Virus record (IMG/VR): IMGVR_UViG_2671180435_000009
Length of the DNA: 5,132 nucleotides
Reading direction: 5' to 3' (one strand)
DNA from: a virus
Lineage: Duplodnaviria > Heunggongvirae > Uroviricota > Caudoviricetes
Part shown: in pieces, positions 1 to 5,132 of the stretch
Layout: each line of letters opens with the position of its first letter
How positions within the stretch are numbered: position 1 is the first letter of the stretch
The notes under the pieces: model-generated
What the model was told of the DNA's origin: nothing
Databases searched by the model: none
The model's input: only the letters and a program-made list of their open reading frames with translations
Position numbers and translations under genes: made by a program

Positions 1-32
1 GTAATTGAAGCCTGATAGCTAATTTCACTCAC
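1..32 (-). CDS. 5' end of an unidentified gene running off the left edge (partial)
   Basis: Minus-strand AGGAGG (40-45) sits 7 nt upstream of GTG at 32-30. That GTG overlaps the TGA stop (31-29) of the upstream gene as GTGA, a typical coupling arrangement. Only about 10 codons are visible (VSEISYQASI...). A GTG at 28-26 is an alternative start. Confidence 0.25.
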   Translation of the reverse strand, partial: MSEISYQASI

Positions 33-1159
33 AGTACCGCCTCCTGAAAATCACCCTGATAGAAAGCCGGTACACGCTGCATAACTTCANNNNNNNNNNN
101 NNNNNNNNNNNNNNNNNNNNNNNNNNNNNNNNNNNNNNNNNNNNNNNNNNNNNNNNNNNNNNNNNNNNNNNNNNNNNNNNNNNNNNNNNNNNNNNNNNNN
201 NNNNNNNNNNNNNNNNNNNNNNNNNNNNNNNNNNNNNNNNNNNNNNNNNNNNNNNNNNNNNNNNNNNNNNNNNNNNNNNNNNNNNNNNNNNNNNNNNNNN
301 NNNNNNNNNNNNNNNNNNNNNNNNNNNNNNNNNNNNNNNNNNNNNNNNNNNNNNNNNNNNNNNNNNNNNNNNNNNNNNNNNNNNNNNNNNNNNNNNNNNN
401 NNNNNNNNNNNNNNNNNNNNNNNNNNNNNNNNNNNNNNNNNNNNNNNNNNNNNNNNNNNNNNNNNNNNNNNNNNNNNNNNNNNNNNNNNNNNNNNNNNNN
501 NNNNNNNNNNNNNNNNNNNNNNNNNNNNNNNNNNNNNNNNNNNNNNNNNNNNNNNNNNNNNNNNNNNNNNNNNNNNNNNNNNNNNNNNNNNNNNNNNNNN
601 NNNNNNNNNNNNNNNNNNNNNNNNNNNNNNNNNNNNNNNNNNNNNNNNNNNNNNNNNNNNNNNNNNNNNNNNNNNNNNNNNNNNNNNNNNCCTGTACCGG
701 TAACGCAACACCTGCTGGCTGAGGAAAGACTTTACCATCCGTTTCCGCTATGGATGCGGCTTTCGGCTCTGCCGGTAAATCAGCGCCCGGNNNNNACCGA
801 AATTTACCGCCCTGATTCACGCGAATCAGACGCCCTTTGCTGATTGCCATGGCCAGCGATGAATTCGCCCGGCGGGAGGTAATCCCGAACATCAGTGCCA
901 GCTCATCCGCCGTTTGTGGGCCATGTTGTTCAATCGCCTCAGTCAGCATTTGCGCTGTCACTTTCGGTACCGGTGACACTGGTTCACTTTCACCAGCCTG
1001 AATCAGCCACCACATCGAACCCTTGTTATCCGCTTCACCACGGCGCTTCAGTTTCCACAGTTCGTTGACCGCATCTTCACGGCTGATTCCAAGGCGGGAC
1101 GCCACCACATGTGAAGAGGCTCTTTTCAGTGCTTTCAGTGCGTCAAATACAGTTTCCAT
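29..1159 (-). CDS. hypothetical protein with two N-terminal winged-helix-like repeats; over half the gene is masked
   Basis: ATG at 1159-1157 is preceded by GGAGG (1172-1168) with 8 nt spacing, 21 nt after the dnaC-like stop. The ORF track starts at TTG 1177, which I consider less likely. The frame is open from 1159 to the mask at 690 and the same coordinate frame ends at TGA 31-29. The visible N-terminus (METVFDALKALKRASSHVVASRLGISREDAVNELWKLKRRGE... and ...MLTEAIEQHGPQTADELALMFGITSRRANSSLAMAISKGRLIRVN) looks like two HTH/winged-helix units followed by a Pro/Ala-rich linker. Continuity across 90-690 and 791-795 cannot be verified. Confidence 0.5.
   Translation of the reverse strand: METVFDALKALKRASSHVVASRLGISREDAVNELWKLKRRGEADNKGSMWWLIQAGESEPVSPVPKVTAQMLTEAIEQHGPQTADELALMFGITSRRANSSLAMAISKGRLIRVNQGGKFRXXPGADLPAEPKAASIAETDGKVFPQPAGVALPVQXXXXXXXXXXXXXXXXXXXXXXXXXXXXXXXXXXXXXXXXXXXXXXXXXXXXXXXXXXXXXXXXXXXXXXXXXXXXXXXXXXXXXXXXXXXXXXXXXXXXXXXXXXXXXXXXXXXXXXXXXXXXXXXXXXXXXXXXXXXXXXXXXXXXXXXXXXXXXXXXXXXXXXXXXXXXXXXXXXXXXXXXXXXXXXXXXXXXXXXXXEVMQRVPAFYQGDFQEAVL
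90..690. other. masked or undetermined bases (601 N)
   Basis: Run of N in the supplied sequence; lies inside the 29..1159 ORF. Confidence 1.
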
Positions 1160-1180
1160 TAAAACATCCTCCAACAAAAA

Positions 1181-1927
1181 TTACTTCACAACTCCCGGAA
1201 AGCTGACATTTGAACGCCAGCTATCCCAGTTAAACGTCACCCACCGACAACCGTTCATGGTCATGCGGTCCATAATCCTCTCACCAAGAAGCGTGCTCAT
1301 TGCGGCATGATTCAGGTTTGTTAACATCCCGACACTGCACAGTGATGCTGTCCGGCGATCAATTATCTGGTGCAATACCACCTGCTCGTTTTTCGTCTCC
1401 CGCTGAATGCCTATTTCATCCAGGACCAGCAAATCAACCCCGCAAAGCTCCTGTAAAAATTTTTCACCGGATTTGCCGTTGTCGTAGCTGTCATGCAACA
1501 CGCTCATGACATCAGACTCGGTGACGATAATCACGCTGCGCCCCTTCGCCATCAGCCGGTTACCCATCGCCGCTGCAAGGTGATTTTTCCCGGTGCCGGT
1601 TTTACCGCTGAACACAAAATTCGTGCACCCGGTCATCAGTTCGTCAGCTATGGATTTGGCCTGGCTCAGCGCGTATTTTTGCCCGTCGTTCTGCACCTGA
1701 TAATTCGCAAACGAGCATTTGCTGTGCAGAGGCTGGATGCCCGAACGATTCAGGATTTTTTCCACCCGCAACTGGCGATTCTGGCGGTTAATCTCCTCGC
1801 TGCGTTTTCGTCCTTCAGCAAGTTGCCATTCCCGCCACTCCTCCACCGTCCGGTACGGTGGAACCGCCCCCTGTGGTGCAAGTCTGTGAATACGTTCAAG
1901 AACCCCGGCTGCCGCAATGTTTTTCAT
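1181..1927 (-). CDS. dnaC: DnaC-family AAA+ helicase loader (prophage-type DnaC paralog)
   Basis: Complete 248-aa ORF with ATG at 1927 and TAA at 1183-1181, with a G-rich SD (GGGGGTG) upstream. Walker A FSGKTGTGKNHLAAA and Walker B VDLLVLDEIG are present. Blocks NRSGIQPLHSKCSFANYQV, GMLTNLN, LLGERIMDRM and FNWDSWRS match E. coli DnaC as I remember it (NRSGIRPLHQNCSFENYRV, GMLTNSN, LLGERVMDRM, FNWDSYRS), and the N-terminus MKNI... matches MKNV.... This is from memory, not a database search. Confidence 0.93.
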   Translation of the reverse strand: MKNIAAAGVLERIHRLAPQGAVPPYRTVEEWREWQLAEGRKRSEEINRQNRQLRVEKILNRSGIQPLHSKCSFANYQVQNDGQKYALSQAKSIADELMTGCTNFVFSGKTGTGKNHLAAAMGNRLMAKGRSVIIVTESDVMSVLHDSYDNGKSGEKFLQELCGVDLLVLDEIGIQRETKNEQVVLHQIIDRRTASLCSVGMLTNLNHAAMSTLLGERIMDRMTMNGCRWVTFNWDSWRSNVSFPGVVK

Positions 1928-1933
1928 GCCACA

Positions 1934-3057
1934 TCACCCCCTGAATCCCGGCGGAATTTCGGTATCCGGTTCAGAAATATGATTCACACAACGCTGGTTG
2001 TTCGTGCCGCTTACCGGGAGCAACCAGGGGTTTTCAAAATTCCGGTCCGGCCCAAAAAACGNNNNNNNNNNNNNNNNNNNNNNNNNNNNNNNNNNNNNNN
2101 NNNNNNNNNNNNNNNNNNNNNNNNNNNNNNNNNNNNNNNNNNNNNNNNNNNNNNNNNNNNNNNNNNNNNNNNNNNNNNNNNNNNNNNNNNNNNNNNNNNN
2201 NNNNNNNNNNNNNNNNNNNNNNNNNNNNNNNNNNNNNNNNNNNNNNNNNNNNNNNNNNNNNNNNNNNNNNNNNNNNNNNNNNNNNNNNNNNNNNNNNNNN
2301 NNNNNNNNNNNNNNNNNNNNNNNNNNNNNNNNNNNNNNNNNNNNNNNNNNNNNNNNNNNNNNNNNNNNNNNNNNNNNNNNNNNNNNNNNNNNNNNNNNNN
2401 AGGCTGCTGCAGTTGGAGTGATTGCTCCGGCCTTGCGGTCATCACCTGCTGCACAGCGCCCGAATCGGCTTTCAGCGCATACGCTGAATCGGCTTCCGGT
2501 GTCGAGCCTGCTGGCTGACCAGGATTGACGGTCTGAACATCCCCTGCCTGGTTCGTGGCGTTTTTTACGCCATGGACCATAGTGTTTTGATCTTCTTTAT
2601 CTGTATCTTTATCTGTATCTGTCGTGACTCGTCGTGACATGTGCGTGACATTTCGTGACGCGCCGTGACAATCGCCATTTTGTTCCCGCTTTCTTTCCCT
2701 CTCTCGCTGCGCCCTCTTGCGCTCTGCAGGAGATTTTGCGGTTTGCGAAATATTGCCGTTGTCCTCTTTAAGCACCTGGCGTTTTTCCCATCCAGTGATT
2801 AAATCACCATCAAGTACCCGCCCCTGCATCGTCTGCAAAATTGAATCAATTACCTCTTCTGTCACGTCGAGCGCACTTGCCAAATCTTCTGTCGTGACAT
2901 CAATGTGACCTCGCGTGACATTTCGTGACGCGCTCACCAGGAGGTGGATATACACTGCCATCACTGTTGCAATTGGCTGCCCTGACACCCTGGCAATTGT
3001 TCGCCACTTAGGGTCATTTGGCATGTCATGCCATAATCTGAGCCAGGCGTTAGCCAT
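1934..3057 (-). CDS. phage replisome organizer (O-like N-terminal domain) with DnaT-like C-terminal tail; reading frame changes inside the masked block 2062-2400
   Basis: ATG at 3057-3055 follows an SD (AAGAGGTG, 3068-3061). The ORF track starts at GTG 3063. The N-terminus MANAWLRLWHDMPNDPKWRTIARVSGQ... fits the pattern I associate with phage replisome-organizer N-terminal domains. Downstream of the mask, a different frame reads ...NQRCVNHISEPDTEIPPGFRG and stops at TGA 1936-1934, 6 nt before the dnaC-like ATG. This closely matches the E. coli DnaT C-terminus as I recall it (...RDVNTVSEPDSQIPPGFRG). The ORF-track end at 2011 (tail RFLGRTGILKTPGCSR) is in the N-terminal frame and is probably spurious. 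One gene or two cannot be resolved because of the mask. Confidence 0.7.
2062..2400. other. masked or undetermined bases (339 N)
   Basis: Run of N; hides the junction between the organizer N-terminal frame and the DnaT-like tail frame. Confidence 1.
2596..2619. repeat. 2 x 12-bp perfect tandem repeat TTTATCTGTATC in an AT-rich tract
   Basis: Read directly: 2596-2607 and 2608-2619 are identical. On the coding strand they encode DTDK DTDK. The tract lies immediately beside the iteron array. Confidence 0.8.
2621..2670. repeat. iteron array: 5 direct CGTGAC copies at 10-11 bp spacing; putative phage origin inside the organizer gene
   Basis: CGTGAC at 2623-2628, 2633-2638, 2644-2649, 2654-2659 and 2664-2669, all in the same orientation at roughly one helical turn, flanked by the AT-rich tract 2581-2620. 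The layout resembles lambda ori, which lies within gene O. Confidence 0.6.
2861..2933. repeat. second iteron cluster: 1 inverted copy (GTCACG 2861-2866) plus 4 direct copies
   Basis: CGTGAC or GTGAC at 2893-2898, 2905-2909, 2914-2919 and 2924-2929, with 10-11 bp spacing. A 21-bp exact copy of part of the first array (GCGTGACATTTCGTGACGCGC) occurs at 2643-2663 and 2913-2933. Confidence 0.5.
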
Positions 3058-3128
3058 ACTCACCTCTTCTGATACCGAATCTTTTTACTCACGAGTTGCC
3101 GGGAGCGATTCGATATGGCTATTGTCAG

Positions 3129-3408: not shown

Positions 3409-4586
3409 NNNNNNNNNNNNNNNNNNNNNNNNNNNNNNNNNNNNNNNNNNNNNNNNNNNNNNNNNNNNNNNNNNNNNNNNNNNNNNNNNNNNNNNNNNNN
3501 NNNNNNNNNNNNNNNNNNNNNNNNNNNNNNNNNNNNNNNNNNNNNNNNNNNNNNNNNNNNNNNNNNNNNNNNNNNNNNNNNNNNNNNNNNNNNNNNNNNN
3601 NNNNNNNNNNNNNNNNNNNNNNNNNNNNNNNNNNNNNNNNNNNNNNNNNNNNNNNNNNNNNNNNNNNNNNNNNNNNNNNNNNNNNNNNNNNNNNNNNNNN
3701 NNNNNNNNNNNNNNNNNNNNNNNNNNNNNNNNNNNNNNNNNNNNNNNNNNNNNNNNNNNNNNNNNNNNNNNNNNNNNNNNNNNNNNNNNNNNNNNNNNNN
3801 NNNNNNNNNNNNNNNNNNNNNNNNNNNNNNNNNNNNNNNNNNNNNNNNNNNNNNNNNNNNNNNNNNNNNNNNNNNNNNNNNNNNNNNNNNNNNNNNNNNN
3901 NNNNNNNNNNNNNNNNNNNNNNNNNNNNNNNNNNNNNNNNNNNNNNNNNNNNNNNNNNNNNNNNNNNNNNNNNNNNNNNNNNNNNNNNNNNNNNNNNNNN
4001 NNNNNNNNNNNNNNNNNNNNNNNNNNNNNNNNNNNNNNNNNNNNNNNNNNNNNNNNNNNNNNNNNNNNNNNNNNNNNNNNNNNNNNNNNNNNNNNNNNNN
4101 NNNNNNNNNNNNNNNNNNNNNNNNNNNNNNNNNNNNNNNNNNNNNNNNNNNNNNNNNNNNNNNNNNNNNNNNNNNNNNNNNNNNNNNNNNNNNNNNNNNN
4201 NNNNNNNNNNNNNNNNNNNNNNNNNNNNNNNNNNNNNNNNNNNNNNNNNNNNNNNNNNNNNNNNNNNNNNNNNNNNNNNNNNNNNNNNNNNNNNNNNNNN
4301 NNNNNNNNNNNNNNNNNNNNNNNNNNNNNNNNNNNNNNNNNNNNNNNNNNNNNNNNNNNNNNNNNNNNNNNNNNNNNNNNNNNNNNNNNNNNNNNNNNNN
4401 NNNNNNNNNNNNNNNNNNNNNNNNNNNNNNNNNNNNNNNNNNNNNNNNNNNNNNNNNNNNNNNNNNNNNNNNNNNNNNNNNNNNNNNNNNNNNNNNNNNN
4501 NNNNNNNNNNNNNNNNNNNNNNNNNNNNNNNNNNNNNNNNNNNNNNNNNNNNNNNNNNNNNNNNNNNNNNNNNNNNNNNNNNNNNN
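3409..4586. other. masked or undetermined bases (1178 N)
   Basis: Run of N; the largest hidden block, bordered by genes entering it from both sides. Confidence 1.
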
Positions 4587-4611: not shown

Positions 4612-5010
4612 ATGAGTACAGTCCTTTCCCCAATGGTTTCAGAATTTGAGACAGTTGAGCAAGAAAATAGTTACAANNNNNNNNNNNNNNNNNNNNNNNN
4701 NNNNNNNNNNNNNNNNNNNNNNNNNNNNNNNNNNNNNNNNNNNNNNNNNNNNNNNNNNNNNNNNNNNNNNNNNNNNNNNNNNNNNNNNNNNNNNNNNNNN
4801 NNNNNNNNNNNNNNNNNNNNNNNNNNNNNNNNNNNNNNNNNNNNNNNNNNNNNNNNNNNNNNNNNNNNNNNNNNNNNNNNNNNNNNNNNNNNNNNNNNNN
4901 NNNNNNNNNNNNNNNNNNNNNNNNNNNNNNNNNNNNNNNNNNNNNNNNNNNNNNNNNNNNNTACCTGTATCCTCCAAGCGAGCGAGTTCTTGGTCTTCGT
5001 GAAATTGTAA
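4612..5010 (+). CDS. hypothetical small protein (about 132 aa if continuous), middle masked, lower-GC region
   Basis: ATG at 4612 follows GAGGAG (4597-4602) with 9 nt spacing. The ATG overlaps a TGA (4613-4615) that would terminate an upstream plus-strand frame coming out of the mask. Visible N-terminus is MSTVLSPMVSEFETVEQENSY. The same coordinate frame is open beyond the mask and ends at TAA 5008-5010 (...TCILQASEFLVFVKL). Continuity is unverifiable. Confidence 0.3.
   Translation: MSTVLSPMVSEFETVEQENSYXXXXXXXXXXXXXXXXXXXXXXXXXXXXXXXXXXXXXXXXXXXXXXXXXXXXXXXXXXXXXXXXXXXXXXXXXXXXXXXXXXXXXXXXXXXXXXXXTCILQASEFLVFVKL
4677..4961. other. masked or undetermined bases (285 N)
   Basis: Run of N inside the putative 4612..5010 ORF. 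Confidence 1.
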
Positions 5011-5132
5011 CTCATCCTAACTACATCATCCTTTACCGAGTAACAGCATCAAGCATAGAAGTAGTAAATATTGTGCATTCTCGAAGACAGTATCCAGGCA
5101 AAAACAGTTAATTATTCCCGCCGACAGAACCA

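Follow-up and report, generated by a model that had tools for sequence, protein, structure and literature searches.

A putative bipartite replication origin within the organizer gene of a Rac-like lambdoid prophage

Inside the gene of its own replisome organizer, a Rac-like lambdoid prophage of Escherichia coli carries a set of DNA elements that is probably its replication origin. The stretch analysed here (the window) comprises 5,132 nucleotides of the Caudoviricetes record IMGVR_UViG_2671180435_000009 and is the early-right operon of such a prophage, read on the - strand. The candidate origin occupies window positions 2549-2929 and consists, in gene direction, of a repeat array over codons of the N-terminal domain of the organizer (array A), an array over the following linker (array B), an AT-rich tract and an inverted repeat. 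We read it as an origin because this layout matches published origins that lie inside initiator genes, and from the same sequence features we infer binding by the N-terminal domain, melting, loader recruitment and firing. An earlier sequence-only reading had placed an origin-like structure of lambda-like layout at 2581-2670. Its layout is supported here by comparative evidence of selection at the DNA level and by the published layouts of lambda and SPP1, and repeats and an AT-rich tract are indeed found in that interval; the full element, however, is bipartite and longer, with a second array, an inverted core copy (2861-2866) and an inverted repeat that the earlier reading did not contain.

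Array B consists of five copies of CGTGAC on the + strand, at 2623, 2633, 2644, 2654 and 2664, so that successive copies are 10, 11, 10 and 10 bp apart; our motif scan thereby confirms the number, orientation and 10-11 bp spacing given before for 2623-2669. The window as a whole holds nine copies of the hexamer against 1.5 expected, and none of 200 dinucleotide shuffles reaches nine. Across 8 kb of the unmasked relative L002 there are ten core copies, eight of them in the arrays, one inverted between them and one outside the organizer gene. Chance as an explanation is ruled out by these shuffles and by the same-locus control windows described below. The array lies within the - strand open reading frame 2011-3057, where it codes for C130-T146 (CHGASRNVTHMSRRVTT), followed by DTDKDTDKED; with a structured N-terminal domain at aa 1-95 and a linker of low predicted local distance difference test score (pLDDT) after it, the earlier claim that the repeats encode the linker holds. 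The cores stand in frames 1, 2, 0, 2 and 0 (L004) and are read as CH, SR, VT, SR and VT. Because they occupy all three reading frames, array B is a DNA repeat and not a peptide repeat. What is conserved in it is a 6-bp asymmetric core recurring every 10 or 11 bp, with nearly free flanks.

Array A lies 270 bp from array B in the same orientation, with cores at 2893, 2904 (TGTGAC), 2914 and 2924, and codes for A43-T55 (ASRNVTRGHIDVT) of the winged-helix domain; from the modelled helix positions, these residues would make up the end of the helix at aa 29-45 and the loop or strand that follows. Two blocks are common to both arrays, one of 21/22 nt (2912-2933, with its match at 2642-2663) and one of 11 nt (TCTGTCGTGAC, present at 2888 and again at 2618). 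Codon usage at conserved residues was compared among 20 diverged genes whose arrays use GTCACG, the hosts having 34-69% GC. Codons within array A are fixed: V47 is GTC, T48 ACG, G50 GGT and V54 GTC in 20 of 20 genes, H51 is CAC in 19 of 19 and S44 is TCA in 19 of 20. The spacer codon R49, by comparison, uses four codons and the 30 other conserved codons are saturated, giving a mean codon entropy of 0.32 bits under array A versus 1.52 bits at the other conserved codons (Mann-Whitney p=1.5e-5). Because its synonymous sites are frozen, array A is under purifying selection as DNA, beyond its coding role. The encoded residues themselves vary with the motif (NVT..H.DVT versus ATE..RTQ), and may be either passengers of the DNA constraint or contributors to specificity.

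In some E. coli and E. albertii variants (P0016, P0017) the loop that array A encodes contains seven inserted residues, TCHGVSL. The E. albertii locus L005, with this insertion, has GTCACG copies at gene nt 129, 139, 149 and 181, which recalls the O proteins of Stx phages, where extra iterons come with 13 extra residues (PMC7466680). The single inverted copy between the arrays has a counterpart at the equivalent position of locus L022; since LDV(T) is kept as protein also in subfamilies with other motifs, a DNA-level function is not indicated for this copy, which may be a mere consequence of the conserved peptide.

Homologous genes from distant hosts share this organization, with array A around gene nt 130-160 and array B around 380-430. 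Homologues of the N-terminal domain at 35-90% identity were collected, and 66 loci, one per species, were taken from among them, 62 of these being long enough for analysis; most belong to gamma-, beta- and alpha-proteobacteria, with some metagenome-assembled genomes assigned elsewhere. Nearly all have a 6-mer in three or four copies at gene nt ~117-165 and the identical 6-mer in three to seven copies at ~340-480, followed by an A/G-rich, AT-rich tract that often consists of (A)GATAA hexamers. Each subfamily has its own version of the 6-mer (GTCACG, GTAACG, CGAACG/GAACGC, GTGACG, AACGCC), identical in both arrays of one gene, and motif switches between subfamilies always affect both arrays together; often the 6-mer is almost unique to the two arrays within a locus of ~6 kb. 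Spacings of the best shared 6-mer across the 62 genes are dominated by 10 bp (135 times) and 11 bp (30 times), the next classes being 20, 21 and 30. A motif common to both regions, with at least two copies in each, was found in 72.6% of genes versus 2.7% of 445 same-locus control windows, and at least three spacings of 10/11 bp in 58% of genes versus 0% of control windows. At least three phased exact copies occur in the linker of 37 of the 62 loci, and 32 of those 37 are phased in the N-domain region as well. As in the window, linker copies of the homologues rotate through all three reading frames. The 40 nt past the last linker copy have a GC content of 23-38%, even in loci of 57-69% GC (L010, L015, L019, L020). 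Phasing, placement in all frames, concerted motif change and frozen silent sites taken together indicate that the repeats are selected DNA elements. Absence of the repeats from homologous replication modules had been named earlier as grounds for giving up the origin; they are present in the phages Tritos and Evi and in most of the 62 homologues.

The AT-rich tract adjoins array B, as had been described, and the 40 nucleotides at 2579-2618 (25% GC) are the least stable of 2489 unmasked 40-nt windows, with a nearest-neighbour dG of -43.2 against a mean of -56.1 and a standard deviation (sd) of 3.7 (~3.5 sd). Tandem Repeats Finder reports a 12-bp unit, TCTTTATCTGTA, in 2.2 copies of 100% identity at 2594-2620, which is, in another register, the perfect 2 x 12-bp tandem previously seen at 2596-2619. 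In the alignment of window 2594-2622 with L001/L002 (columns 216-221) the number of TCTGTA/TCTTTA hexamers varies among otherwise ~99% identical relatives, with one more DK/DT dipeptide as the result; the tract is slippage-prone.

Beyond the tract, the inverted repeat can form 13 pairs if G-T is allowed, with a single-stranded DNA fold of -8.7 kcal/mol (z -3.2). About one third of homologues have a perfect stem of 6-11 bp with a 4-nt T..C loop in the equivalent place, the stem sequences being unrelated; a stem matched by at most 10% of control windows occurs in 27% of loci versus 10% expected, and the hairpin is thus enriched, not universal. In homologues L020, L032, L034, L039, L045, L058 and L065 it is found ~27-60 nt past the last linker repeat (for example TCTCTCTCTCC-TGAC-GGAGAGAGAGA), and other loci, as well as ydaU of K-12, have a CCCCC...GGGGG element (PPLNPPRG) in its place. 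The hairpin of the window resembles an intrinsic terminator on the antisense (+) strand, a reading for which we found no antisense promoter; a search of Rfam for structured RNA gave no family at gathering score.

The first 95 residues of the organizer (aa 1-95) form a winged-helix domain; a linker follows (aa ~96-165), and the C-terminal domain ends in a DnaT-like tail. In the AlphaFold2 model, aa 11-90 have a pLDDT of ~90-98 and form a confident winged helix, with helices at 4-14, 16-25, 29-45, 56-63 and 67-77 and then a hairpin wing; the nearest folds are the N-terminal domain of DnaD and the winged-helix domains of replication initiators. No Pfam family matches this domain above threshold. 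PHROG 3729, 'replication initiation protein', matches fully, 'replisome organizer' families of PHROG match at 6e-6 and 3e-4, and the RefSeq name of the window protein is 'phage replisome organizer'. Residues 333-356 align with the 24 C-terminal residues of DnaT (SEPD..IPPGFRG), with E 1.4e-3 in NCBIfam (cut-off 201 bits) and E 0.02-0.07 against DnaT chains of the Protein Data Bank (PDB); this tail corresponds to window 2011-2082 and L002:3093-3164 (…VNHISEPDTEIPPGFRG). In both comparisons the DnaT homology is confined to the extreme C-terminus, with none beyond, and the tail may serve as a handle for the DnaB-DnaC complex. The product of the next gene is a helicase loader of the DnaC type (NCBIfam PRK12377, E 2e-150; DnaC PRK07952, E 2e-88; Pfam IstB_IS21; PHROG 'DnaC-like helicase loader') and is presumed to be the partner recruited to the origin.

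These elements suggest how the origin would work. The winged helix of the initiator would bind the 6-bp GTCACG cores, five in the linker array and four in the array 270 bp upstream in the gene, and with one core per helical turn the bound proteins would all face the same side of the DNA. As the initiator oligomerises on the linker array, perhaps with a loop connecting this array to the upstream one, the AT-rich tract would be stressed and melt, and the C-terminal domain with its DnaT-like tail would then bring in the phage DnaC-like loader together with host DnaB. Transcription of the operon through the gene would probably assist, as in lambda, and the hairpin may delimit the melted region or have its effect in single-stranded DNA.

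The element is of a known kind, an origin inside an initiator gene that combines repeats with an AT-rich unwinding element, and it falls outside the lambda O family and, by sequence thresholds, outside the SPP1 G38P family; it is set apart by its repeat design and by the second, codon-overprinted array. Lambda iterons are ~19 bp long and internally symmetric, and lambda has a palindrome beyond its AT-rich region. The iterons and AT-rich tract of lambda are found halfway along gene O, and as in the origins of lambda and Stx phages, the window has repeats in mid-gene followed by a promoter-distal AT-rich tract that would melt; as in lambda also, the repeats encode the linker between the N-terminal domain, presumed to bind DNA, and the C-terminal domain, presumed to recruit the loader, extra repeats add residues, and the N-terminal domain is exchangeable together with its repeats (PMC7466680). 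Unlike lambda, the window has an initiator without homology to O and direct cores of 6 bp that recur once per helical turn, a second array lies on the codons of the DNA-binding domain, and the partner is a DnaC-type ATPase rather than lambda P. SPP1 oriL, within gene 38, likewise has direct repeats along with an AT-rich unwinding element in the organizer gene; its organizer G38P binds oriL and a second region, oriR, and the helicase loader acts next (PMC6316719). Our N-terminal domain resembles that of G38P in being a DnaD-like winged helix and in its weak end-to-end alignment to PF09681. The differences from SPP1 are the below-threshold PF09681 match, a DnaC-like loader instead of G39P, Gram-negative hosts, and a second region ~270 bp away in the same gene rather than ~13 kb away. 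The satellite phage P4 (ori and crr) also has short direct repeats for its initiator in two distinct clusters that act in cis on one replicon, but there the clusters are kilobases apart and the initiator is an unrelated primase-helicase.

The Rac prophage of K-12, for which an active origin named oriJ has been reported (PMC3945230), offers a further comparison. Its ydaU-ydaV region has the same order of YdaS/Cro-like regulator, YdaT-family protein, initiator, DnaC-like protein and a further gene, the same kind of loader, and within ydaU an almost identical AT tract (AAAGATACAGATAAAGA) with repeats just upstream of it. The N-terminal domain of YdaU, by contrast, is DUF1376 (3e-26), unrelated in sequence and without a match in the window-type protein; BLASTP likeness between the two proteins is restricted to the linker and the C-terminal tail, where 13 of 19 residues are alike and both end in PPGFRG. 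The Rac repeats differ too. GATGTTSAA has 13 matches in the K-12 locus versus 4.7 expected, a number reached by 0 of 200 shuffles, and these are loosely phased where ours are tight; six of the 13 lie inside ydaU (L003 3266-3579), two in N-domain codons and four just before the AAAGATACAGATAAAGA tract. On this sequence evidence, the GATGTTSAA repeats in ydaU are probably the basis of oriJ.

Exchange of parts is also visible among the homologues. Most tblastn matches stop at aa ~124-160, just past the repeats, and the C-terminal domains differ beyond; the next gene encodes a DnaC/IstB-like protein in L020 and L029 as in the window, a helicase of the DnaB type in L034 and L045, DUF6475 in L039, and a product without assignment in other loci. 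A lambda P-like partner in L010 and L015 was a visual impression that Pfam did not confirm. Because C-termini and partners swap among the homologues, and N-terminal domains swap between the window protein and YdaU, we view the DNA-binding domain and its cognate repeats as one exchangeable unit whose junction is the AT tract, a pattern known for lambdoid O/ori. In the metagenomic proteins P0042, P0060, P0061, P0073, P0099, P0101 and P0109 the N-terminal domain is fused to an HNH endonuclease domain (PF01844/PF14279), which takes the place of the usual C-terminal domain.

Several observations weigh against an origin bound by the organizer. Similarity to Phage_rep_org_N (PF09681) is below the gathering score (E 0.25; 11.8 versus 23.3 bits), if nearly end-to-end (protein 5-122, profile 1-118 of 121), and lambda O (Pfam Phage_rep_O) is not matched by the organizer even at E<=10. 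The cores, direct and no longer than 6 bp, differ from the iterons of lambda. Three phased exact linker copies are missing from 25 of the 62 loci, and about a quarter of distant homologues lack a motif common to both regions by the exact-6-mer criterion. The distance between arrays ranges from 221 to 350 bp and does not come in constant multiples of 10.5, the helical repeat, which rules out fixed helical phasing between the arrays and gives no indication of a fixed loop geometry. Runs of N mask part of the organizer gene and the upstream regulatory region, and our literature search found no binding, melting or origin-mapping experiments on this initiator family.

If the organizer or a regulator bound the repeats for regulation, by autorepression, as a transcriptional roadblock in the early operon or in copy-number control by array pairing, replication could start elsewhere. 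The presence of two arrays, of which one is distant from the AT tract, would suit such a role, and initiator-binding repeats that do not fire are known: SPP1 oriR acts as a fork block (PMC6316719), and the extra iterons of Stx phages are weakly bound by O, yet still required for replication (PMC7466680). We nevertheless consider this unlikely for the element as a whole, because array B always directly precedes a strongly AT-rich tract, even in high-GC hosts, which is the signature of an unwinding element and not of an operator, and because unmasked L002 has no copies near the promoter region. For array A alone a regulatory role may well be true. It is quite unlikely, in turn, that arrays and AT tract form an origin whose cores are read, instead of by the organizer's N-terminal domain, by some host factor or a different phage protein, for which the DUF1627 protein with its weak helix-turn-helix matches would be a candidate. 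The helix predicted at the recognition position (aa 67-77, EEVIDSILQTM) is acidic, which fits another reader. However, the type of motif follows the N-domain subfamily across host classes, whereas neither C-terminal domains nor downstream genes are constant; several inspected loci keep the arrays but lack DUF1627; and DnaA boxes are not enriched, the two 1-mismatch matches (2.1 expected) both lying outside the element.

That the repeats are by-products without DNA-level function, arising as a peptide repeat, by slippage or by duplication of an N-domain segment into the linker, is very improbable. The peptides encoded by the arrays are alike (ASRNVTRGHIDVTTED versus GASRNVTHMSRRVTTD), the arrays share the 21/22-nt block, and the hexamer number of the AT tract varies between relatives, all of which a by-product could produce. 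A peptide repeat is nonetheless ruled out by cores in all three frames and a 10/11-bp period that is no multiple of 3; synonymous positions are frozen only under the cores; and the layout persists, with different motifs, across deeply diverged hosts. An internal promoter was also considered, and the one weak + strand match (2645-2672) consists of the repeats and is no more than shuffles give.

Within the preferred reading of 2549-2929 as an origin, array A could provide auxiliary binding sites, take part in looping, act as a roadblock in autoregulation or serve copy control. A more elaborate version, which we put forward tentatively and with considerable doubt, is a bipartite self-referential origin: the array over codons 43-55 would be a working initiator site paired with the linker array by looping or handcuffing, and would control firing or link initiation with the initiator gene's transcription and translation. 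Because the loop residues change with the motif, the same nucleotides might be both binding site and code for part of the specificity determinant, and changes of origin specificity would then be tied to a single mutational path. More generally, a defined origin would provide a handle for mini-replicons and a reference point for induction coverage maps, and would allow incompatibility or cross-activation between co-resident prophages to be predicted from the core motif. The family is a natural experiment in which the binding motif was switched several times, in both arrays at once, and array A, coding for a folded protein segment with frozen silent sites, is a clean case for dual coding and for co-evolution of initiator and site.

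We found no described origin for this replication module in the literature; published work on the replication region of non-lambdoid Stx phages does not mention repeats or origins, and recent Rac literature treats ydaUVW as uncharacterised. The window is 94-97% identical to isolated phages, Tritos and Evi among others, and 2950 of 5426 complete E. coli genomes match a 1-kb query, 1661 of them carrying most of it; the organizer gene is frequently labelled 'hypothetical' in RefSeq. To our knowledge, none of the 25 phage records with the N-terminal domain belongs to an experimentally studied phage.

Table 1. Features of the window, with positions counted from its first nucleotide.
Feature	Positions	Strand	Remarks
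DUF1627 protein gene	29-1177	-	annotation via near-identical locus L002
DnaC-like helicase-loader gene	1181-1927	-	directly downstream of organizer gene
Organizer ('phage replisome organizer') gene	2011-3057	-	partly N-masked; 356 aa in close relative L002
Inverted repeat (hairpin)	2549-2579	none	directly after AT tract in gene direction; perfect core TGGCGT/ACGCCA
AT-rich tract, putative DNA unwinding element	2579-2622	none	6/12-bp tandems (TCTTTATCTGTA x2.2); A/G-rich on gene strand; encodes (T/K)D repeats
Iteron array B	2623-2669	-	five direct cores, GTCACG on gene strand, recurring every 10/11 bp; encodes C130-T146
Single inverted core copy	2861-2866	-	between arrays; CGTGAC on gene strand; encodes part of LDVT
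Iteron array A	2893-2929	-	four direct cores (GTCACG x3, GTCACA x1), period 10/11 bp; overprints codons 43-55
RelB-family antitoxin gene (MSTVLSPMVSEFETVEQENSY…) and RelE/ParE-family toxin gene	4612-5110	+	annotated in L002; largely masked in window

Runs of N occupy 90-690, 791-795, 2062-2400, 3409-4586 and 4677-4961 of the window, masking part of the C-terminal half of the organizer and the entire upstream regulatory region, and these gaps were filled from the relatives L001 and L002. Gene order in L002 is YdaS/Cro-like regulator, YdaT-family protein, organizer, DnaC-like ATPase and DUF1627 protein, and the RelB/RelE-ParE pair is divergent from this replication operon. A GTG at 3063 lies upstream of, and in frame with, the open reading frame of the organizer. 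Near the 5' end of the DUF1627 gene, at 1124-1141, there is a perfect 2 x 9-bp tandem, TTTCAGTGC, which is probably due to chance.

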